Origin: an uncultured Verrucomicrobiae bacterium
GTDB lineage: Bacteria; Verrucomicrobiota; Verrucomicrobiia; Chthoniobacterales; UBA10450
Length of the DNA: 64,000 nucleotides
Direction: 5' to 3'
Assembly (NCBI GenBank): GCA_963756875.1
Contig: CAVWPA010000003.1
Location: 416,001-480,000, forward strand
Shown here: positions 14,704-27,363 of the stretch, piece after piece
Numbering within the stretch: position 1 is the stretch's first letter
Layout of the letters: each line of letters begins with the position of its first letter
Program-made: the position numbers and the translations under genes
The notes under the pieces: model-generated
Told to the model about the DNA's origin: nothing
The model's database searches: none
The model's input: the letters and a program-made list of their open reading frames with translations, nothing else

Positions 14704-17700
14704 TCAGATGGCCGGTTCCGCCGCTTCAGGCGGCGCCGCCGGGCGTGCGCCGGAATGCCGCGATTGGTTCGACATGAAATAGAGCACTGGCACGGCCATG
14801 CGGCTGATGAGGAGCGATGCGATTTCGCCGGCCATTAAGGAGATGGCGAGTCCCTGAAAAATCGGATCGAACAGGATCACACTCGAACCGACCACCACAG
14901 CCATCGCGGTGAGCAGCATGGGACGAAAACGCACCGCGCCCGCATCCACGACCGCTTCGGCCAGCGGCATTCCTTCGCGCAACCGTCGCTCGATAAAATC
15001 GACAAGGATGATCGAGTTACGTACGACGATCCCCGCGCCGGCCATGAACCCGATCATCGAGGTAGCGGTAAAAAACGCGCCGAGCAATCCGTGCGCCGGC
15101 AGGATGCCGACGAGCGAAAACGGAATCGCCGCCATGACGATCAGTGGTGTGAGAAACGAACGAAACCAGCCGACCATCAGGGCGTAGATGAGGATCAGCA
15201 CCGCACCAAACGCGAGGCCGAGGTCGCGGAACACTTCGATGGTGATCTGCCATTCGCCATCCCATTTCAACGCAGGGCGCAGATCGGTGAATGGAAGATG
15301 TGCGTTGTAAATTTCGAGTTTTGACCCCGTGCCGCCGAACTCACGCGTGTCGAGCGCGCGCAGTTTCTTGTTCATTTTTAAAATGGCGTAAACCGGGCTC
15401 TCAATCGGACCGGCGACGTCCCCGATGACATAAGTCACCGGCATCAGATTTTTGTGGTAGATACTTTTGTCGGTGATGGTGTGCTCGACGCTCACCAGTT
15501 CGCGCAATGGCACCAGCGGCGCGGGAGTCGCCGCGCCGGGTTCGGGAAGCGCATTGGCGTCTCCGGAACGGACACGCAGCGCGAGCAATTCTTCCGGCGT
15601 GACGCGCGCGGAACGGGGAAGTTCGAGCAGAATGTTGACGTCCTCCCTCTCGCGCGGCTGATGGAGGAGATCGATGGAGCGACCGCCGACGGCGATTTGC
15701 AGCGTCTCCGAAATCGTTTCGGCGCTGATGCCATGCAGCGCTGCTTTTTCCTTGTCGATCACGAACCGGTCCTTCGGCTGGTCGGCTTCGATGTACCAGT
15801 CGACGTCCACCACGCCCGGCGTACTTTTGAAAATGTCGCGCACGCGTCTCGCCATCTTGAGCCGCCCCTGCTCGGTGGGGCCATAGATTTCGGCGACGAG
15901 TGTTTGTAAAACCGGCGGTCCCGGGGGCACTTCGGCTACGGCCACGCGCGCGTTAAATTTTGCCGCGATGGCCGCAACGCGCGGGCGCACGCGTTTGGCG
16001 ATGTCGTGGCTTTTGGCTTTGCGCCTGTTCTTGGACACGAGGTTGACCTGAATATCGGCGACGTTCGCGCCGTGCCGCATGAAGTAATGGCGGACGAGAC
16101 CATTGAAATTGAACGGCGCGGCGACGCCGGTGTAGATCTGGTAGTTCGTAACTTCCGGCTCGCCGCGGACCGCGGCGGCGATCTCGCGTGCGGCGTGCGC
16201 GGTGCGTTCCAGCGAGCTTCCTTCGGGCATGTTCAAGATGATCTGGAACTCGCTCTTGTTATCGAAAGGGAGCATTTTCACCTTCACCCAGCCGATGGCC
16301 ACCAGTCCCATCGCGCCGAGCAACAGCGCGACGATCGCTCCAAGAAAAATCCAACGTCGCGAACGACGATCGATGAGCGGCCCCATTAATCGCCGGTAGA
16401 TCCGCGTGAAAAAATCTTCGCTGCGTTGAAGATGTTTCGCCGAACTCCCGAGCCGCAACATACGAATGGCGGCCCACGGAGTGACGATGAACGCGATCGC
16501 GAGCGAAAAAGCCATTGCCGCGCTGGAGCCGATCGGAATCGGCCGCATGTAAGGTCCCATCAGCCCGCCCACGAATGCCATCGGCAGCACCGCTGCGATC
16601 ACAGCAAACGTCGCGAGGATCGTCGGGTTGCCGACTTCGTTCACGGCCTCGATTGCGATTTGCGCCCAATCGCGTTCGCGGTTTTGCGGCAGATGAAAAT
16701 GACGTACGATGTTTTCGATTACGACAATCGCGTCATCGACGAGGATGCCGATCGAAAAGATCAGCGCGAAAAGCGTGATGCGATTCAGCGTGTAACCGTA
16801 GAGCAGGAAAACGAGCAGCGTCAGCGCGAGTGTGGATGGAATTGCGAGCGCAACGATGACCGATTCGCGCCAGCCGAGCGTAAGCAGAATGAGCAGCGAC
16901 ACGCCAAGCACGGCCAGTAACATGTGGAACAACAGCTCGTTTGACTTTTCCAAAGCCGTAGCCCCGTAATTGCGCGTGATGGAGACGTGCACATCGGATG
17001 GGATGAGCACGCCGCGTAGCGTGTCGATTTTTTTGAGAACCTGATTTGCAACGGCGATGGCGTTTGCGCCCGGCCGCTTGGCGATGCTTAGCGTGACGGC
17101 GGGCTCTTCGTTGGCAGTCGGAGAGGCGGCGGCGCCAGACCCGAAGAAGACATAGTTCGACGGCTCCTCCGCGCCGTCCACGATGTCGGCGACCTGGCGC
17201 AGATAAACCGGCCGATCGCCGAATACTCCGACGATAACATTGCCGACGTCCTGAGCGTTTTTCAAAAATGCACCGGTCTCAATGACCACCTCGTGATTTT
17301 CGCTGGTGAGTCCGCCTGAGGTGAACTGCCGGTTCGCCTGTTGAAGCATCGGCACGATACCGGCCACACTGAGGTTGCGCGAAGCGAGCCGCGCCGGGTC
17401 GAGAAGTACGCGAATTTGCCGCACCGCGCCGCCGATGATGTTTGTCTCAGCAACGAGCGGCACTTGTTTCACCGCGTCGTCCACCTGGGCGACGAGCCGC
17501 CGCAACGTGAGATGGTCGTATCGGCTGCTGTGAAACGTGAGCGCCAGGATCGGGACGTCGTCAATCGAGCGCTGTTTGATGAGCGGGAACGAGACGCCGT
17601 GCGGGATGCGATCGAAGTTCGACTGAAGTTTTTGGTCTAGCTTAACCAGGCTGCGCTCGACATCTTCGCCGACGCGAAATCGCACGATCACGAGGCTCTG

Positions 17701-17982
17701 GCCCGTGCTCGAAGTCGAATAGATGTATTCGACTCCCGGGATCTCCCATAGCAGCTTTTCCATCGGCCGCGTGGCGCGTTCTTCGATTTCCTTTGCACTT
17801 GCGCCGGGCATCGAAACCATTACGTCGATCATCGGCACTTTGATTTGCGGTTCCTCCTCGCGCGGCAGCAACCAGACCGCGGCAATACCGAGCAGCACCG
17901 ATGTGATAATGATTAGCGGCGTGAGCTTCGAATCGATAAACGCGCGCGCGATTTTGCCCGCGACGCCCAGATTCGCATTCAT
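14704..17982 (-). CDS. RND efflux transporter permease (AcrB/AcrD/AcrF family)
   Basis: 1092 aa; [37 protein letters not shown]. Confidence 0.95.
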
Positions 17983-19025
17983 GGCCTGGCTTTCACGGCC
18001 TGGCCGTCCACGAGCAAAGCCGCGCCATCGGTAACAACCTCTTCGCCGGCGCTGACGCCGGACAGCAGCTCGATTTCGTCGCCGAAGCGCCTGCCCGTCT
18101 TCACCAATCGCAACTGCGCATGATTGTTCGTGACGACGAAAACCAGTTCCATTTGTCCGCGCTCAATCACCGCGCTTGCGGGCGCGCGAAGCACGTTCGT
18201 TTCGCTTACAGGAATTTCGACGCGCCCGAACTGACCCGCGCGCAAATCCGGCGCGGATGGCAGATCGAGCTTTACCAGAAAAGTGCGGCTGCCTGGGTCG
18301 GCCGAGGGAGCAATCTCGCTGACCACTGCTTCACGCTCCTTTGACGCGATGCGGACCGGAAGCTTTGCGCCGAGCGCGACCTTTGCAAGGATCGCCTCTG
18401 GCACGGCGGCTTCGAATTGCAACGTATGCGGGTCTTCCATCTCGATCAGCGGTTTTCCCGGCGTGGCGAGATCGCCGACATCGGCAAGTTTGCGTGTAAC
18501 TACACCGTCGAACGGGGCGGTGATTTTCGCGTAGTCGAGCATCGTCTCCGCTTCAGTTGCCGAAGCGACGGCGACCTGATAACGCGACTGAACGGCCTCA
18601 AACTCGGCGGGGGTAATCACCTGCTGGGCGCGGAGCGTCTGGTAGCGTTTCAATTCGCTCTCAGTTTGTCGGCGGACGGCGAGCGCTTGGTCCAGCTTGG
18701 CCTGGATCTCCCGCACGTCGAGCTGTGCCAGGAACTCGCCCGCCTTCACTTTCTGTCCCGGCGTGGCGAGCATTTTTTCGATACGCCCGCTTACCTTCGC
18801 TTCGATCACTGAGTGAAGCTTCGGACGGACCGTGCCGACAACTTCTTCCGCGGCGACATGAGGCTTTTCCTCGATCTTTTGAACGCGAACGTTCGCCGCG
18901 GGCAGCGCTGTCGGCGGTGGCAGGCGGTGTTTTCCGCAGCCCGCCAACAGAACCAGCCCTAGCGCGACAAGACAAATGCCGCAACACCGGAACACGAGAT
19001 TATCGATCGGCTTTAATAAGTGCAT
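17979..19025 (-). CDS. RND periplasmic adaptor (membrane fusion protein)
   Basis: LAGC lipobox, [23 protein letters not shown] overlap with permease. Confidence 0.93.
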
Positions 19026-19079
19026 CTAACGGAGTAATGACCCGCAGTTCGATGGCGCCGGCGCGAGTTGTTTCGTCGA

Positions 19080-19763
19080 TCAGTGGGCCTTAATGACATA
19101 TTGATAGGGTAACATCCCGCTATCAGCAGAAACGACGGTGAAGCCCGCCGATCTTAACTCCGATTCTGCCTGTTCTTCCGCGACCCGGAGTTCGACGGGT
19201 GGTCCCGGCGGCGTCTTCATCTTCTTGAAGTCGATGATCACGAGCACACCGCCTTTGCGAAGACACTTTTTAAGCTTCTTGAGGTATTCGATTCTGTTTT
19301 CGATGTGATGAAACGTGTCCACGATTAGCACCATATCGGCTTCACGCGTCTTGAGTCCCGATGAATCCGGCGTGGTCAAGCGGGTCTCGATATTGGCGCC
19401 GATCTTTTGCGTCTGTTTCTTGTGGTCGATGTAATCGAGGAACCGCTGGTCGATATCGATGGCGATCACCTTCGCCGCTTTCTTCGCGATCGGGAAAGCA
19501 AAGTAACCGGTGCCGGCGCCGATGTCGGCGACGGTCTTTCCGTCGAGTGGTCCCAGGTTGGCAACGATCTTCTCCGGCTTTTGCCATTTCGCCCGCGAAG
19601 GATCCTCGAAACGAGCCGTCAGTTTGTCGAAATCCGCCTGGTGCATGTATCGGTTGGCCGCGCTTTCCTGCGCAGCCGCGGCAGGTTCGGGATGCAATAA
19701 AGCGCACGCCATAAGGGTCGTCGTGGTGATTGAGAATAATTCCTTGATCATAGATTGCGTCAT
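19080..19763 (-). CDS. Class I SAM-dependent methyltransferase, probably exported
   Basis: WQKPEKIV, VADIGAGTGYF, AIDID, DTFHHI; start uncertain. Confidence 0.85.
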   Translation of the reverse strand: MTQSMIKELFSITTTTLMACALLHPEPAAAAQESAANRYMHQADFDKLTARFEDPSRAKWQKPEKIVANLGPLDGKTVADIGAGTGYFAFPIAKKAAKVIAIDIDQRFLDYIDHKKQTQKIGANIETRLTTPDSSGLKTREADMVLIVDTFHHIENRIEYLKKLKKCLRKGGVLVIIDFKKMKTPPGPPVELRVAEEQAESELRSAGFTVVSADSGMLPYQYVIKAH

Positions 19764-19787
19764 CCTTTGTCGACTTGCAGGCAAAAC

Positions 19788-19920
19788 TCGGACCCAGAGT
19801 GTAAAAGATAAACGTAGAACATGTCCGCCATTAACGCACTTGAGCCGCGTGAGGCGAAGCTATTTACGCGGGCTACCCCGCTTGGATTCGAACCCCGAAA
19901 GCTTTCGAGGCTGTGTTACC
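19788..19920 (-). mobile_element. Truncated second copy of the tRNA-Gln / GIY-YIG element junction
   Basis: Near-copy of 20957..21098: tRNA fragment, one inverted repeat with 2 mismatches, first 11 codons of GIY-YIG; anticodon arm replaced by a palindrome. Confidence 0.85.
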
Positions 19921-20037
19921 TAAGGGCGGCGGTTTCTTTGACAGATAGTTGACGGGTACAGACAGGAAATTATCACGAATTCCTCCGAAGCCACGTCGCT
20001 TTCGGTAGCGGTGCTCTTCTTCACCAGTCAGCCGGCG

Positions 20038-20553
20038 CTATTGATTCTTGGTTTTACCTTCTTCCTTGGACGCGTGATCGCCGTCTTTAGTGGCACGCTG
20101 TTCCCTCCTGTATTTGCCCTTCTTGGTCCTCTCATGCGACTTGGAGCCGTCCTTGTGATAAACACGCTGCCCATGCTGCCCGCGGGTTTTCCTATCGCGC
20201 ACGACCGTTTGCGATCCAGCGCGGGGTTCGGGTGTCGTTTTGGTCACGGGCTCAGTTGCTGAGGGTGTCGTTTTGATCACGGGCTGAGTTGCTGAGCTGG
20301 CAACGGGAGTTGCTGAGCTAGCAACGGGAGCAACCGTCGCCGCAGGGGCGGGCGAAGCCGCTTTCGGGTTGGCCGGGGATGGCGACGCGCCGGCATTCGG
20401 AAGGTTAACGACGCTCGTCCCAACCTGCAGTCCCGGCGCATACCGCACTTGGAATGAATCATTCGGCGGAGCCACTGGCGTCGGCGATTGCGCTGATAGC
20501 GACACCGCAGAAAAGACCACCAATACGATTATCAACCGTGCCGAATTATTCAT
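20038..20553 (-). CDS. Hypothetical secreted Pro/Thr/Ala-rich protein with basic tail
   Basis: Signal peptide; internal repeats (VASSATP x2, VxKTTP x2); Lys-rich C-terminus. Confidence 0.6.
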   Translation of the reverse strand: MNNSARLIIVLVVFSAVSLSAQSPTPVAPPNDSFQVRYAPGLQVGTSVVNLPNAGASPSPANPKAASPAPAATVAPVASSATPVASSATQPVIKTTPSATEPVTKTTPEPRAGSQTVVRDRKTRGQHGQRVYHKDGSKSHERTKKGKYRREQRATKDGDHASKEEGKTKNQ

Positions 20554-20672
20554 GAGAAGGATAATGGTAGGGCAATCGGGCGCATAAGCGAGTGTGATTT
20601 CGTGCGCGAGCTAAAACTCCAACAATTCGTTCGCATGTCGCTCGCAGCGCGAAGAATAGAGGGAATTTAGAT

Positions 20673-20697
20673 TGGCTACGCCGCTTGGATTCGAACC
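20673..20697 (-). repeat. Duplicated tRNA-Gln 3' end carrying CCA
   Basis: GGTTCGAATCCAAGCGGCGTAGCCA versus tRNA GGTTCGAATCCAAGCGGGGTAGCC (1 mismatch). Confidence 0.9.
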
Positions 20698-21042
20698 GCG
20701 TAAAAGGCTTCGCCTCACGCGGCTGATCGACTTGGGAATCTCTTAAGATAATAGGTTAATTGTCGCCGCAGGAAACGCCTGCCGCTGCCGCTCTTTAAAT
20801 ATCGCTCCCGTCCCTCGGCGTCACGTTGATCGGTGTAGGCCTCGTAGTAGATGAGCTTCCATGGCCCCCGGTGTTTTGTGGCCTTCCGAGGCACCTGCTT
20901 TGTGCTGCGACAAGCGTCTTTTAAGGTCCGCAGAATAGCCGATGTAAAAGCCCGCATCGGACCCAGAGTGTAAAAGATAAACGTAGAACATGTCCGCCAA
21001 TTAACGCATTGTGAGCCGCGTGAGGCGAAGCCTTTTACGCGG
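20696..21042 (-). mobile_element. 347-bp putative mobile element: GIY-YIG gene between perfect 29-bp terminal inverted repeats
   Basis: 20696..20724 CCGCGTAAAAGGCTTCGCCTCACGCGGCT is the exact reverse complement of 21014..21042; flanked by direct copies of the tRNA 3' end. Confidence 0.8.
20715..20991 (-). CDS. Small GIY-YIG nuclease (about 91 aa; +1 frameshift near 20886)
   Basis: MFYVYLLHSGSDAGFYIGYSADLKRRLSQHKAGAS / KATKHRGPWKLIYYEAY..DAEGRERYLKSG; stop codon lies inside the inverted repeat. Confidence 0.88.
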
Positions 21043-21043
21043 G

Positions 21044-21114
21044 CTACCCCGCTTGGATTCGAACCAAGAATAACGCCTCCAAAGGGCGCTGTGTTACCGT
21101 TACACCACGGGGTA
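21044..21114 (-). tRNA. tRNA-Gln(TTG)
   Basis: TACCCCG acceptor stem, anticodon arm GCGCC-CTTTGGA-GGCGT, T-loop GTTCGAATC; followed by CCC, not CCA. Confidence 0.95.
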
Positions 21115-21183
21115 TTCCCGATCCGGGATCGTGGATTTCGGACTACCGATTTGCAACCGTAGCGCGCTCGACAGCGCGCGCAA

Positions 21184-22314
21184 TTATTGCCCGGTGGATG
21201 ATTTTGGCAGCCGAATATCGATTGTGGTCCCTTTGCCCGGAACGCTGGCAATGGAAATTGTGCCGCCATGCGCTTCCATGATCGATTTCGCGACGGCCAG
21301 TCCGGCCCCGGTGCGGTGCGATTGGGCATGCGGCTCGAATGGCTCGAATAACCGCGAGACCAGCTCCGGGGGGATTCCGACGCCTGTGTCCGAGATTCGT
21401 AGGGCAACCTGTCCGAGTACCAGGTCGGTCGTGAGTGTGAGCACGCCTCCGTTCGGCATGGCGCCGATGGCGTTATCGATCACGGTTCCGAGCGAACGTG
21501 TCACCCGGCCAAGATCGATGTCGACGTTGCCCTCGTATCGAATGTGTTTTACAAACTCGATTTTCCTCGCCGGCAAGAGATGAAGCGATTGCCGGTTCAA
21601 TTCATCGAGCAAACGCCAGATCGAGACCGGCCGCTTGCTGACCGAAACCGAGCCGCGCGTGTAATCGAGCAGGTCCAGGGTCATGCCAAGGATGCCGTTC
21701 ACCGCTTCGGTAAGCATTTTGCTCAATTCGCGCAGCTGCGGGTCGGTCGATTCGTTTGCGATCACCTCCGAGCAGCAGCGGGCGATACAGACTGGATTTT
21801 TTAGATCCTGGAGCACGGCATTGGCCAGCGCGCCGGCCACTCGCAGGCGTTCTGCGCGCACCGTCTCATGCATGAAATGCGCGTTCACTTTTCGAATGCG
21901 ATCCGTGACGGCGCGAAGAAAGTTCATGTGCAACCGGCTGGGCGCGATCTCAAGAAGCTGCTGGAAGGTTTTCTCTTTGACTGTGCCAATCACTGCAGGT
22001 TCGACCGCGCGCGCCGTGACAGAGCGGGTCTCGCCAGCGAGCAGCGCCGTGGCGCCAAAGAAATTTCCCGGGTCGACATAATCGACAATCTCCTGCTCGC
22101 CGGCGCTGCTGGGCCTCGAAATTTCGATGGAACCTTCTCCCACCAGATAAAGCGAATCGCCGGGGTCGCCCTCGTGAAAAATGATCCCTCCCGGCTCAAC
22201 GTGGAGCACGCCGATCTTGGGCGTGATCCTTTTCAGCGTGGTTGAGCTGATTCCTTCGAAAAGCCGGTTACCGGCGAACCGTTCGGAAACGCGTACTCGC
22301 GGCGCTGAGCTCAT
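21184..22314 (-). CDS. cNMP-binding domain / histidine kinase-like protein (H-box His replaced by Gln)
   Basis: FHEGDPGDSLYLV; LQDLKNP; DNAIGAM, ISDTGVGIP, GAGLAVAK. Confidence 0.88.
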   Translation of the reverse strand: MSSAPRVRVSERFAGNRLFEGISSTTLKRITPKIGVLHVEPGGIIFHEGDPGDSLYLVGEGSIEISRPSSAGEQEIVDYVDPGNFFGATALLAGETRSVTARAVEPAVIGTVKEKTFQQLLEIAPSRLHMNFLRAVTDRIRKVNAHFMHETVRAERLRVAGALANAVLQDLKNPVCIARCCSEVIANESTDPQLRELSKMLTEAVNGILGMTLDLLDYTRGSVSVSKRPVSIWRLLDELNRQSLHLLPARKIEFVKHIRYEGNVDIDLGRVTRSLGTVIDNAIGAMPNGGVLTLTTDLVLGQVALRISDTGVGIPPELVSRLFEPFEPHAQSHRTGAGLAVAKSIMEAHGGTISIASVPGKGTTIDIRLPKSSTGQ

Positions 22315-22324
22315 GGCCCCGGGG

Positions 22325-23059
22325 CTAACTAGCCAGCGAAGAGCCTGTCGGACCTCCCCCGGCGCGCGAATATTTCACGCTTTCCAGGATTGAGCGGACA
22401 TTGCTAACGATTTCATCGGGCGCCAGCGGTTTTCGCAAGAAGCCGCTAAGTCCGGCGCTCATTAACTGGTCGAGGCGTTCCCCTTGAATAAATCCGGTGC
22501 AAAGCACGACGGGAACGTCGGGCCGAATTTCGCGAAGCCGCTGAAACGTTTCTTCACCATCCATAAACGGCATGGTGAGATCGAGAATGACGAGTTCGTA
22601 GGCATGCGGGCGTCGTCGAAATAGATCGAGACATTCAAACCCGGACTGCGCCGTGGTCACATTGTAGCCGGATGTGGAAAGGAGTTGTTTCACCAGCGTC
22701 AACGCCATTTCCTCATCGTCCACTACCAGAATGCCCGGCCTGTGCACCGGCATTTGTGTCACCGCTTTCGGTTTTACGAATCCGGCCAGATCGGGATGCA
22801 TCAGCATCTTGTGCTCGGCTCCGCCGGCTTGCTGCGAAAGCTGGGCTGCAACCGTCTCCGCGCGCTCGATGCTTTCACGCAGCATCTCGAGATATTTTTC
22901 GGCGCCGTCGCTGCCTTCCCACATGTTCTCGATTTCGGAGCTCGTGCCCGAAATGATCTGCAGGAGATTGTTCAGCTCGCTGGCAGCTTTGGAGACCGAT
23001 TTCTTGGAAACCGAATCATCCGGCGGAAGCGGGGTATTGCTCTTCGAATGAGACTTCAT
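22325..23059 (-). CDS. Receiver-domain protein with N-terminal HisKA-like helix lacking His
   Basis: AASELNNLLQII; ILVVDDE, LDLTMP, CTG, RKP. Confidence 0.85.
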   Translation of the reverse strand: MKSHSKSNTPLPPDDSVSKKSVSKAASELNNLLQIISGTSSEIENMWEGSDGAEKYLEMLRESIERAETVAAQLSQQAGGAEHKMLMHPDLAGFVKPKAVTQMPVHRPGILVVDDEEMALTLVKQLLSTSGYNVTTAQSGFECLDLFRRRPHAYELVILDLTMPFMDGEETFQRLREIRPDVPVVLCTGFIQGERLDQLMSAGLSGFLRKPLAPDEIVSNVRSILESVKYSRAGGGPTGSSLAS

Positions 23060-23238
23060 CCGGCTAACTCTAAGCACGCCTGATGCCTCCGAAGGCCCTG
23101 CTCCGAAAAAATATCCCCAGCTTTGGGACAGATTGACGCAGTCAAGCCAGGCTGCGTTACCCTATTTGGAGCCGGCCGGCACACCGGAAATCCGATTCGC
23201 AATCAGGTCAATCCCGCCTATACTTGTTGTTCCCACTT

Positions 23239-24006
23239 ATGAAGGAACTTCGCATTGAAAATCTGCACGCGAACATCGCCGATCGGGAGATTGTTCGCGG
23301 CCTCAGTCTCGCCATCCCGCAGGGGGAAGTGCATGCCATCATGGGGCCGAACGGCTCGGGCAAGAGCACGCTTGCGAAAGTGATGGCCGGCCATCCCGAT
23401 TATCAGGTCACCGGCGGCAGGGTCATGATGGACGGTGAAAATTTGCTCGAACTCGAACCGGACGAGCGTGCGCGTCGCGGACTTTTTCTCGCTTTTCAGT
23501 ACCCGAACGAAGTTCCCGGCGTCACCATCGCGAATTTCTTGCGTGCCGCGGTGCAATCGCGTCTGCCGGAGGGTGAGGAACTCGAGGCCACCGATTACTA
23601 CGCAAAGCTTTACGAAAAAATGGAGCTCCTCGGGATGGAGCGTTCGTTCACCTCGCGTTCGGTCAACGAAGGTTTTTCCGGCGGCGAAAAGAAGCGCGCC
23701 GAGATTTTACAGCTGGCCATGCTGGAACCGAAGTATGCGATCCTCGATGAGACCGACAGCGGTCTCGACATCGATGCGCTCAAAACCGTCGCTCACGGCG
23801 TGAATTCGTTGCGCGGGCCGAATATTGGAATACTTTTAATCACACATTATCAGCGTATCCTGAACTACATCGTTCCCGACCACGTGCATGTGATGGTGCA
23901 GGGCCGGATCGTGCGCAGCGGCGGGAAGGAACTGGCGCTCGAGCTCGAAGAGCGAGGCTATGATTGGGCGCGTGAGACGGCCGGTGAGATGGCGCTGACC
24001 AAATAA
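23239..24006 (+). CDS. sufC: Fe-S cluster assembly ATPase SufC
   Basis: [37 protein letters not shown]. Confidence 0.97.
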
Positions 24007-24031
24007 CAAAACTCGGCAACCACAAATCGAC

Positions 24032-25441
24032 ATGAAAACTGAAACCAAAGCGGTCGATATCAATCGCGGAATCGGCGATTTCGCATATCCGGAAGTGCAC
24101 GTTCGTGATGCGGGCGCCGGTTTGAGCGAAAAGACCATTCATTACATCTCCGACGTCAAGGAAGACCCCGATTGGGTCCGTGAATTCCGGCTGCGCGGGC
24201 TGAAGACATTTCTTGAGAAGCCGCTGCCCACGCATTGGGCCAGCAAGGACCTCGAGGCAATTGATTTCGACAAGATCCGTTATTATCTGTCGCCCGGCAC
24301 CACCACGAAGCGCAGTTGGGACGAAGTGCCGGAGGACATCAAACGCACGTTCGAACGGCTGGGGATTCCCGAGCAGGAGCGAAAATTCCTGGCCGGCGTG
24401 GAAGCGCAGTTCGACAGCGAAGCGGTTTACTCAAACATCAAGAAAGCGGTCGGCGAACAAGGCGTCATTTTCATCGGCTCGACCGAAGGCCTGAAGAATC
24501 ATCCGGACATTTTCCGGAAATGGTTCGGCAAGATCATTCCGATTGGCGATAACAAATTCAGCGCGCTCAACAGCGCGGTCTTCAGCGGCGGTTCGTTCAT
24601 TTATGTTCCGCCCGGCGTGAAGGTGAAACATCCGCTCCAGGCGTACTTCCGGATCAACGCGGAAAACTTCGGGCAGTTCGAACGAACGCTGATCATCGCG
24701 GACGAAGGCTCGGAAGTCACTTACATGGAAGGTTGCACCGCGCCGAAGTTCAACACCGCCACTCTGCACAGCGCGGTGGTGGAGTTGGTGGCGCTCAAGG
24801 GGGCGAAGATCCAATACATCACGGTGCAAAACTGGTCGGCTAACGTTTTCAATCTGGTGACGAAACGCGGCCTGGCGCACGAAGAGGCGGAGGTGAAATG
24901 GATCGATTGCAATATCGGTTCGCGTCTCACCATGAAGTATCCGGGCGTGGTTCTGAAGGGCCGCAAAGCGCGTGGCGAGGTGCTCTCAATCGCGCTTGCC
25001 AACAACGGCCAGCATCAGGACACCGGCGCGAAAATGGTTCATGCCGCCGATGAGACAACCTCGAATATTATTTCGAAATCGATTTCGATCGGCACCGGAC
25101 GCGCAACCTATCGCGGCCTGGTCCACGTGCCGAAACACCTCAAGCATTGCAAAAACAATACCGAGTGCGACGCGTTGCTCATCAACGCAACCAGCCGCAC
25201 CGACACCTATCCCGCGATTACCGTGCGCGGCGTCGGCAACGCCGTGCAGCACGAGGCGAGCGTCAGCCAGGTGAGCGCGGAACAGATTTTTTATATGCAA
25301 CAGCGTGGCCTGACCCAAGCGCAGGCCATGAGCTTGAGCGTAAACGGGTTCGTCAACGATCTCGTCCGCCAGTTTCCGATGGAATACTCGGTCGAGCTCA
25401 AGCGTCTGATCGAGCTGGAAATGGAAGGTTCGGTTGGATAA
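24032..25441 (+). CDS. sufB: Fe-S cluster assembly protein SufB
   Basis: [37 protein letters not shown]. Confidence 0.97.
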
Positions 25442-25464
25442 CCCTCTAGCCTAACAAATTTAAC

Positions 25465-25488
25465 TGTAGCGGCGGTCTATGACCGCCG
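25465..25488. repeat. GTAG-type REP
   Basis: TGTAG-CGGCGGTC-TAT-GACCGCCG. Confidence 0.7.
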
Positions 25489-25503
25489 TTCTTGTCTATA
25501 GAA

Positions 25504-26826
25504 ATGTCCCTGGTCACTCACGATGAAACGACAAAAGCCGGCCGGGTCCTTTCAGGACCGACCGGTTCCGAGGATTTCCCGGACTGGTTCCGCGAACAAC
25601 AGCGCGCGGCATGGAAACAATTCGAATCGCTCCCGTCGCCGACACGGAAAGATCAGCCCTGGCGTTTTTCCAGTGTCGATCTTCTTGATCTCTCCCCTTT
25701 CGTTCGCTCGCAAGCCCTGAACGATGAGGAGCGCGCCGCAATCCTCGAACAATCGCGCGGGCTCGATAAGGTCGCGGGCCGTCTCGTTTTTGCCGGCGAC
25801 GAGCTGATTCACCGCGATGTCATTTCCGATCAACTTCGGAAGCGCGGCGTCATCTTTCAACCGCTCGAGCGTGCCATGGTCGAGCACGCCGATTTGTTTC
25901 GTAAATATTTCATGTCGCAGCCGGCAATCCTTGGCTCGGCCAAATTCGCCGCCTTGCATCAGGCGCTGGTCACGTCGGGAACATTTCTGTTCGTCCCGCG
26001 CGGCGTGGAGATCGAATTGCCGATCGAAATTTTTCACTGGCTGAGCGGCGACAATGCCGCGGTCTTTCCGCATTTGCTCCTGGTCACGGATGAACTTTCC
26101 AAAGTCACGGTGGTCGAGCATTTCGGTTCCGTCGATCGGCAGCAGACCGGCTTCGCGTGCGGAGTGAACGACCTGATCGCAGGCCCCGGCGCAAAAGTCA
26201 CCTACGTTTGCGCGCAGAATTGGGGAACAAACGTCGTCGCGCTGCAGATCAACTCGACAAGAGTCGAACATGACGCCTCGGCCATGAGCTTGAATTTGCA
26301 TCTTGGCGGGAAATATTCGCGCTTCGAAAGCCTGAGCCGCCTAACCAGCGAAGGCGCGCGCAGCGATCTGCTCGCGGTGTCGGTTGCCGACGGGTCCCAG
26401 GAGTTCGACGCGCGCACGCTCCAGGATCACATCTCTCCACACACTACCAGCGATCTCCTTTACAAAAACGCGCTGAGCGATCGCGCCCGGAATATCTTCG
26501 GCGGCCTGATCCGCGTAGAGCCGCACGCGCATTTCACCGACGCCTACCAGAAAGTACGCAACCTTCTCTTGAGCGATGATGCGGAAGCGAACTCGATGCC
26601 CGGTCTCGAAATTATGGCTGATAACGTCCGCTGCACGCACGGTGCAACGTCCGGCCAGATCGATGAAGACGAATTATTTTATCTGCGCTCGCGCGGAATC
26701 TCCATCCCTGTTGCGCAACGCCTCATTGTGGCCGGATTTTTAAATGAAGTCATCAAGCGCCTTGATCAACCGGCGATCGCGGAGCATTTGAATCGGTTGA
26801 TCGAAGAGAAATTTTCCGGCGCATAA
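25504..26826 (+). CDS. sufD: Fe-S cluster assembly protein SufD
   Basis: QKVRNLLLS, PGLEIMADNVRCTHGATSG, LFYLRSRG; follows sufB. Confidence 0.95.
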   Translation: MSLVTHDETTKAGRVLSGPTGSEDFPDWFREQQRAAWKQFESLPSPTRKDQPWRFSSVDLLDLSPFVRSQALNDEERAAILEQSRGLDKVAGRLVFAGDELIHRDVISDQLRKRGVIFQPLERAMVEHADLFRKYFMSQPAILGSAKFAALHQALVTSGTFLFVPRGVEIELPIEIFHWLSGDNAAVFPHLLLVTDELSKVTVVEHFGSVDRQQTGFACGVNDLIAGPGAKVTYVCAQNWGTNVVALQINSTRVEHDASAMSLNLHLGGKYSRFESLSRLTSEGARSDLLAVSVADGSQEFDARTLQDHISPHTTSDLLYKNALSDRARNIFGGLIRVEPHAHFTDAYQKVRNLLLSDDAEANSMPGLEIMADNVRCTHGATSGQIDEDELFYLRSRGISIPVAQRLIVAGFLNEVIKRLDQPAIAEHLNRLIEEKFSGA

Positions 26827-26913
26827 TCGCGTTCCGGCGTTTGAGGCAGAATTTCTTTGCACAAGCTTGTCGGACTGTTGTATTTTTGGATGCTGGGAAA
26901 CGATTCTCGATCC

Positions 26914-27363
26914 ATGGACGTAAGCGGACACATTGGCGCGATCCTGAGCCAAAAGAGCGGTGAGGTCTTCTCGATTTCGCCCGACGCGACCGTCTTCGAA
27001 GCGATCGAGGTCATGGACGCGAAGAACATCGGCGCGCTGCTGGTGATGGAAGGCGATCGTTTGGTGGGGATGCTTTCCGAGCGCGATTACACGCGGAAAG
27101 TGATGCTGCGCGGGAAACGCTCGCGCGAAACGCAAGTCGCCGAAATCATGTCCACGAACGTGACGGTGACGCATCCGCAGGAGGGTGTGCAAAAATGCTT
27201 GCACCTCATGACGGACAAACATATTCGCCACCTGCCGGTGCTTGATGGCGACAAAGTGGTCGGAGTCGTTTCGATCGGCGATCTGGTAAAGTGGATCATC
27301 TCCTGCCAGAGCGCCGCTATCGAGCATCTGGAAAATTACATCAGCGGCGGATACAGCGGGTAA
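26914..27363 (+). CDS. CBS-domain pair protein
   Basis: NIGALLV, LSERDY, IRHLPV, VSIGDLVK. Confidence 0.92.
   Translation: MDVSGHIGAILSQKSGEVFSISPDATVFEAIEVMDAKNIGALLVMEGDRLVGMLSERDYTRKVMLRGKRSRETQVAEIMSTNVTVTHPQEGVQKCLHLMTDKHIRHLPVLDGDKVVGVVSIGDLVKWIISCQSAAIEHLENYISGGYSG

Follow-up and report, generated by a model that had tools for sequence, protein, structure and literature searches.

The window, by which we mean the whole stretch of 64,000 nucleotides analysed here, carries on its minus strand a tRNA-Gln(TTG) gene followed by a hairpin repeat, a short leader, the gene of a GIY-YIG nuclease, an inverted copy of the hairpin and a duplicate of the tRNA 3' end. These features are located as follows:

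21042..21114, minus strand: intact target gene for tRNA-Gln(TTG), called by ARAGORN and matched by Rfam RF00005 with 62.6 bits at 21044-21114
21014..21042, minus strand: tRNA-proximal hairpin repeat, lying 5' of the nuclease gene, with an outer stem of 6 bp and an inner one of 4 bp
20715..20991, minus strand: single-domain GIY-YIG nuclease gene, UPF0213/Slx1-like, with its stop codon inside the tRNA-distal repeat
20696..20724, plus strand: tRNA-distal hairpin repeat, a perfect inverted copy of the proximal hairpin
20673..20697, minus strand: duplicated tRNA-Gln 3' end from the T-arm to CCA, with one mismatch

The unit adjoining the tRNA gene is 347 bp long, and its two 29-nt arms (20696-20724 and 21014-21042) are 100% complementary. 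Both are predicted to fold, with DNA minimum free energies, computed for each, of -8.6 to -10.3 kcal/mol and z-scores of -2.2 to -2.9. A 28-nt piece of the repeat had three matches in the window at ≤3 mismatches and none in 100 shuffles. The tRNA-Gln duplicate comprises 24 nt (20674-20697) with a mismatch at 20680; the next base is A, so that the copy ends in CCA, whereas the 3' end of the intact gene continues into CCC. As two of the 24 nt belong to the far repeat and one to the near repeat, 21 nt are duplicated outside the unit, and we read the copy at 20673..20697 as a target-site duplication. All these elements of the arrangement had been described in an earlier note on this DNA, and the measurements agree with that description. 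No promoter-like site was found inside the 347-bp unit, the Rfam scan returned tRNA only and no family for the hairpin, and the ORFs listed for 15000-27000 include no integrase.

The nuclease gene runs from the ATG at 20991 to the TGA at 20715-20717, and its 277 nt correspond to 91 codons, the stop and one base. The frameshift noticed earlier is explained by one extra base at ~20882-20887, as compared with all 14 homologues aligned, and PF01541 is matched by both halves of the gene. The frameshifted copy is either a pseudogene or an assembly error, and the window copy of the element is probably inactive. The protein of 89-91 aa consists of PF01541 only, that is, of the nuclease fold alone, and the residues Y5, Y16, G18, R26, H30 and E62 are conserved. 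The predicted fold of an intact relative had a mean pLDDT of 85. The best sequence and fold matches were UPF0213 BH0048, At-HIGLE and Slx1 (with 1zg2 and 1ywl among the UPF0213/Slx1-like structures); the search of the ESM Atlas returned generic GIY-YIG clusters only. No NCBIfam family scored above its cut-off for the nuclease, with TIGR01453 far below, and no transposase family matched it. At E≤1e-20, 1322 homologues were present among 1813 candidates.

A truncated copy of the element at 19788-19920, ~800 bp from the main unit, had been overlooked in the earlier note. It consists of the following parts:

19872..19920, minus strand: tRNA-Gln remnant with part of the D-arm, the T-arm and the acceptor end, its anticodon arm replaced by a second palindrome (19894-19909)
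19843..19871, minus strand: third hairpin copy with 2 mismatches, joined to the tRNA end as in the main unit
19788..19842, minus strand: truncated second nuclease gene (leader and first 35 nt), sharing 43 identical nt with the main copy

In the whole genome the hairpin has six copies, namely three in the window, two at a sister element and one standing alone, and five of the six adjoin a GIY-YIG gene or its fragment. Hence the hairpin is not a dispersed REP family in this genome; a genome-wide REP family on both sides of the gene was what the earlier note had named as fatal to its proposal. The sister element carries an intact gene and the identical hairpin type (C1:528476-528832; L002 1345-1737 = G000:C1:528442-528834). 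It is inserted into the final codons of a gene for an M28 peptidase, and a long duplication is absent there. The insertion has swapped C-termini: the peptidase end is now encoded by the hairpin, and the nuclease frame continues across the right hairpin into the old peptidase end. The intact sister nuclease could act in trans. The tRNA-Gln(CTG) gene of the window genome is bare, without a unit. The gene at whose end the solo hairpin lies (L014 1505-1531 = G000:C1:419379-419405) resembles, judged by eye, a tRNA adenosine deaminase gene.

Altogether the PF01541 profile has nine matches in the window genome, and small GIY-YIG genes with other repeats stand behind two tRNA-Met(CAT) genes, a tRNA-Ala and a tRNA-Gly gene. 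At L001 1418-2110 (G000:C1:541142-541834), two tandem 309-bp GIY-YIG units of a different GIY-YIG subfamily follow tRNA-Met, and the end of each is formed by the 3' half of a tRNA in which the second palindrome takes the place of the anticodon arm. Three further genes of this kind were seen at L004 1370-1790, L005 1310-1840 and L008 1374-1846, immediately behind tRNA-Met(CAT), tRNA-Ala and tRNA-Gly; the repeats there are long structured direct repeats of up to 126 nt, 97% alike, for which no Rfam match was obtained. The second palindrome (19894-19909) has 41 sites in the genome at ≤1 mismatch and was seen in L001 (1750-1766 and 2059-2075), L041 (~1391-1408), L258 and L261. It replaces the anticodon arm in the tRNA remnants of the window, L001 and L041; in some relatives it is found instead of the first hairpin's inner stem. 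The genome also has six Y1 (HUH, PF01797) transposase-like genes and four tyrosine recombinase genes (PF00589), none of them near the hairpins.

The surroundings of the window unit show some further peculiarities. An ORF of 171 aa at 20038-20553 (minus strand) lies between the two tRNA-Gln remnants and encodes a product with a signal-like beginning, repeats rich in Pro, Ala and Thr, and a tail of basic character; it has no Pfam or NCBIfam match, and its region was matched in 0 of 354 family genomes. In several relatives (L036, L041 and L032, compared with window 21114-23224), sufC directly follows tRNA-Gln and the hairpin unit. In the window, a kinase gene and a regulator gene separate tRNA-Gln from the SUF operon, and the tRNA faces away from the operon; since this arrangement differs from that of the relatives, the region has been rearranged.

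The unit had been taken for an insertion in the earlier note, and alleles with empty sites in relatives bear this out. For the search, 12 relatives were chosen since their match stopped at the tRNA. In 3 of the 12 (G108, G043 and G163), a bare tRNA-Gln gene runs into ~110 nt homologous to the DNA past the window duplicate; the homology is that of the downstream side, and no long upstream ORF is present in the regions listed for two of the three. A series of alleles was found in genus g35 at one locus with equal upstream and downstream flanks: the site is empty in G226, holds a solo hairpin in G124 and a half-hairpin in G202, and is full in G034, where the cassette is flanked by a perfect 26-nt duplication. 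As these relatives have tRNA-Gln without the unit, continuing into the DNA that in the window follows the duplicate, we conclude that the window unit is an insertion. It should be noted that the genus of the window genome is represented by one genome only and that the junctions were read by eye throughout.

The junction pattern, composed of the hairpin end and the T-loop with ≤1 mismatch, was found in 37 of 354 family genomes, with one control hit, and in 0 of 249 genomes from the phylum sample that belong to other families. One viral contig carries the hairpin as well. A tRNA-Gln gene is present in 19 of the 24 loci excised from relatives, and 18 of these are hairpin units (5 TTG, 13 CTG); the loci set aside are L254, with its different palindrome, and the five in which no tRNA was called. 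Gene-less doublets of ~85 bp make up 14 of these 18 units and the gene is present in the other 4, and it is absent in all 13 CTG-site units read. In this respect the proposal of a nuclease-bearing, IS-like unit at the tRNA gene is not borne out in the form given, most tRNA-Gln units being gene-less doublets. At the window locus itself, one joint hints at a gene-less doublet (a 20-nt side with 85% likeness) in contigs of four sequencing runs, none spanning the gene. Some tRNA-Gln sites contain tandem units.

The duplicate meets the hairpin at the identical base across two isoacceptors and many genomes, with ~40-330 nt between the tRNA copies. In eight relatives (L036, L041, L066, L084/L242, L239, L240, L241 and L256) the nuclease gene is antisense to the tRNA, and the window has the sole sense-oriented copy among the gene-bearing tRNA-Gln loci read. 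The near hairpin restores CCA in most of the antisense relatives, and a full duplication is absent in L036, L041 and L066. The duplicates track the tRNA variant of each host. G034 and G166 share a near-identical cassette at one site, yet each duplicate fits its own tRNA variant; therefore, gene conversion may contribute and mimic independent insertion. These data show that the tRNA-Gln 3' end is a hotspot at which ~20-21 nt are duplicated (24-26 nt with the shared end bases).

Targeting of tRNA-Gln is not exclusive, since the element occurs at many unrelated sites. Only one of the 20 gene loci of GTDB homologues is at tRNA-Gln, with one distant locus at tRNA-Leu; in the family sample the count is one of 29, with one distant locus at tRNA-Val, and the two locus sets overlap. 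The end of the M28 peptidase gene is the target in L055, L056 and L076, the last of which has a diverged 22-nt duplication (17/22 by eye). In L100 the insertion has hit the beginning of a 5'-3' exonuclease gene and has a perfect 14-nt duplication, in L099 it lies inside an integron integrase gene (with similar flanks in L081 and L094), and in L059 and L062 it falls in the first codons of an older element copy. By the repeat search, a flanking duplication was clear in 2 of 16 gene loci, and its length varies (0-1 nt, 14 nt or ~20-22 nt). Hence, what had been claimed of insertion at tRNA 3' ends with a long duplication is valid for tRNA-Gln, where both recur in relatives; this is one hotspot among several, and the long duplication is not constant. 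In L061 and L088, read by eye, the last bases of the hairpin 3' end seemingly supply the GTG start of a downstream 5'-3' exonuclease gene. The locus L078 was excluded from the reading of loci. The unpublished genomes G002, G007, G014, G135, G155 and G243 are included in the family tallies of hairpins, genes and junctions, and G014 also in the 29-locus gene set; no main claim depends on these genomes alone.

The hairpin stands beside the homologous genes as well, which had been suggested as a check: it was found 5' of the gene in 12 of the 13 close homologues aligned, and the 13th has a variant. Among 120 family genomes, 46 contain the hairpin in 1-11 copies each and 27 the close gene, a count that leaves out G003 and G078 with 44-46% identity. 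The hairpin is present in 22 of the 27 genomes with the close gene as against 24 of the 93 without it, a comparison that is partly circular and in which kin are not independent; four of the five close-gene genomes lacking the standard hairpin have variant hairpins. Across 14 hairpin copies, 95% of the cells pair, and 5 of 10 pairs are altered on both sides. This covariation was reached in 0 of 500 shuffles and exceeds that of the slid controls, although relatedness can inflate it. Judging from these compensatory changes, the structure of the hairpin is conserved, beyond its sequence. At the loci read, the sole gene between paired hairpins at gene-length spacing is the GIY-YIG nuclease with conserved active-site residues.

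The organisation of the element resembles that of REP/RAYT (REPIN) systems, in which a small enzyme gene likewise lies between inverted hairpins and gene-less doublets, solo hairpins and local arrays occur. REP palindromes have a fixed GTAG or CGTC tag at their 5' side. In contrast, the 5' flanks of the present hairpins vary, and the GTAG of the window is the tRNA's own end, which reads GCAG in other genomes. Moreover, the enzyme is a GIY-YIG nuclease instead of an HUH Y1 protein, none of the six PF01797 genes lies near the hairpins, and there is a ~20-nt duplication at a tRNA hotspot. With DDE insertion sequences the element shares terminal inverted repeats, but it has neither a DDE transposase nor a fixed short duplication. 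Integrase-driven tRNA islands, too, leave a displaced tRNA 3' end on the far side of the insertion; unlike these, the element is 347 bp long, lacks a recombinase gene, has hairpin inverted ends, occurs in both orientations and uses non-tRNA targets, and the PF00589 genes are far away. GIY-YIG homing endonucleases differ in that the window protein has no separate DNA-binding domain. The UPF0213/Slx1-like proteins are the best match in sequence and fold, but they are host proteins or structure-specific repair nucleases, and mobility is not described for them in the sources covered.

The closest published layout is that of the Ssn/NTS system (cd10448). According to the main text of Chenal et al. 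(2025, PMC11893778), lone small GIY-YIG genes lie between hairpin repeats, and the NTS-ssnA-NTS arrangement is called IS-like and compared with REP-associated transposases. SsnA cuts ssDNA beside its own hairpin; what is demonstrated there for SsnA is the modulation of transformation and not transposition, and the mobility of hairpin-GIY-YIG-hairpin units is proposed, not demonstrated (PMC11893778). The earlier statement that no named class has this layout was therefore overstated, as a hairpin-GIY-YIG-hairpin layout had been published together with an IS-like hypothesis. Common to both systems, as far as that text describes Ssn, are the lone gene for ~90-100 aa and the hairpin repeats on both sides. 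Meanwhile, the window hairpins do not fit the SRM pattern, and its shortened permissive forms gave 2 and 5 window matches, a number near chance, with none at the hairpins. The NTS-flanked 103-aa protein L141, which served as a proxy for SsnA, aligned over 30 residues with 30% identity overall, and its C-terminal segment is lacking in the window protein. The defining blastp match over 75% of SsnA length was thus not obtained with the window protein, as judged on the L141 proxy. Furthermore, genomes of the window family have 1-11 repeats each, as opposed to hundreds in the Ssn genomes described, and tRNA targeting, duplications and empty sites are found here, whereas the word 'tRNA' has no match in the main text of PMC11893778. 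By the criteria tested, the window element resembles the Ssn/NTS layout and REP/RAYT and is a member of neither. In the literature searched, with most subscription journals outside its coverage, no account of a GIY-YIG hairpin element targeting tRNA genes was found.

In our opinion, the window unit rather probably belongs to a group of tiny mobile elements found in one Chthoniobacterales family, with a REP/RAYT-like organisation and a GIY-YIG nickase; we infer that their mobility is driven by the nuclease. Complete units (hairpin, gene and inverted hairpin, ~330-400 bp) would be accompanied by non-autonomous ones, namely hairpin doublets (~85 bp) and solo hairpins. By analogy with SsnA, the nuclease may bind the folded hairpin on single-stranded DNA and nick beside it, after which host polymerase and ligase would copy the unit into a nicked target. 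This copying could make use of 2-4 shared bases per end, GG at the T-stem and CC/CCA at the acceptor end. Nicking and host repair would also account for the variation of duplication length between targets, which would be harder to reconcile with the constant stagger of a transposase. GIY-YIG domains are hydrolases, and no strand-transfer step is known for them, which is the weak point of the nickase model. Also counted against it are the broken window gene, the presence of Y1 and tyrosine recombinase genes which might act in trans, the gene-less units at CTG sites, the small number of gene loci with a flanking duplication and the possible conversion in G034/G166. An IS608-like guide pairing of the inner hairpin arm with the target was considered and rejected; it fits the tRNA-Gln units and L100 and misfits most other junctions.

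Some of these points would equally be expected if the hairpin or doublet were a REPIN/MITE-like sequence moved in trans by an HUH Y1 enzyme, an integron integrase or an Xer-type enzyme, with the GIY-YIG gene as a passenger or as an Ssn-like nuclease policing hairpin-bearing ssDNA. Most tRNA-Gln units are indeed gene-less, hairpins occur in 24 of 93 genomes without the close gene, the window genome has Y1 and tyrosine recombinase genes, and SsnA is shown to modulate transformation, not to transpose, in the main text of PMC11893778. We nevertheless regard movement in trans as rather unlikely, for all six Y1 genes are more than 100 kb away from each of the six hairpin copies, and at the loci read the only gene between paired hairpins at gene-length spacing is the nuclease, whose active-site residues are conserved.

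Islands integrated at tRNA genes classically leave behind a tRNA 3' end duplicated from the T-arm onwards, and a second tRNA-Gln remnant lies 800 bp away, so the duplicate might be a fragment displaced by an integrase-type island that has since been mostly lost, with the hairpins and the gene settling later. This origin is already weakened by the fixed base at which duplicate and hairpin abut, shared by two isoacceptors and by many genomes, the distance of only ~40-330 nt between the copies and the tandem repeats; as the ORFs listed for 15000-27000 lack an integrase and duplications flank the unit in a protein gene too, we consider it improbable. Still harder to believe is a host gene for an ordinary repair nuclease, on whose two sides hairpin terminators or REPs have come to lie, even though the nearest solved relatives are UPF0213 and Slx1-type repair nucleases. 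The gene is patchily present (27 of 120 family genomes) at many differing sites, coding genes are interrupted, copies are tandem and nested, the few repeats per genome are concentrated at the gene, and the series of empty alleles argues against such a history.

For the preferred explanation, that of a mobile element with a GIY-YIG nickase, a more general formulation is offered tentatively, with slightly less than even confidence: a class of transposable elements in which the sole enzyme, a ~90-aa Slx1/UPF0213-type GIY-YIG nickase, mobilises hairpin-ended DNA (its own gene and the 85-bp doublets) through single-strand nicks and host repair, with the tRNA-Gln T-arm as the preferred site. If true, such an element would be among the smallest autonomous ones, and the large, so far unassigned pool of stand-alone bacterial GIY-YIG genes would gain a selfish function. 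For a second GIY-YIG clade, the comparative evidence of mobility comprises alleles with and without the unit, insertions in either orientation, a defined target with its duplication, the doublets and the intact genes. Whether a lone GIY-YIG nuclease can drive transposition becomes testable, since the protein has 90 aa, the hairpin 29 nt and the target is known; the element family may also yield a further hairpin-specific ssDNA nuclease.
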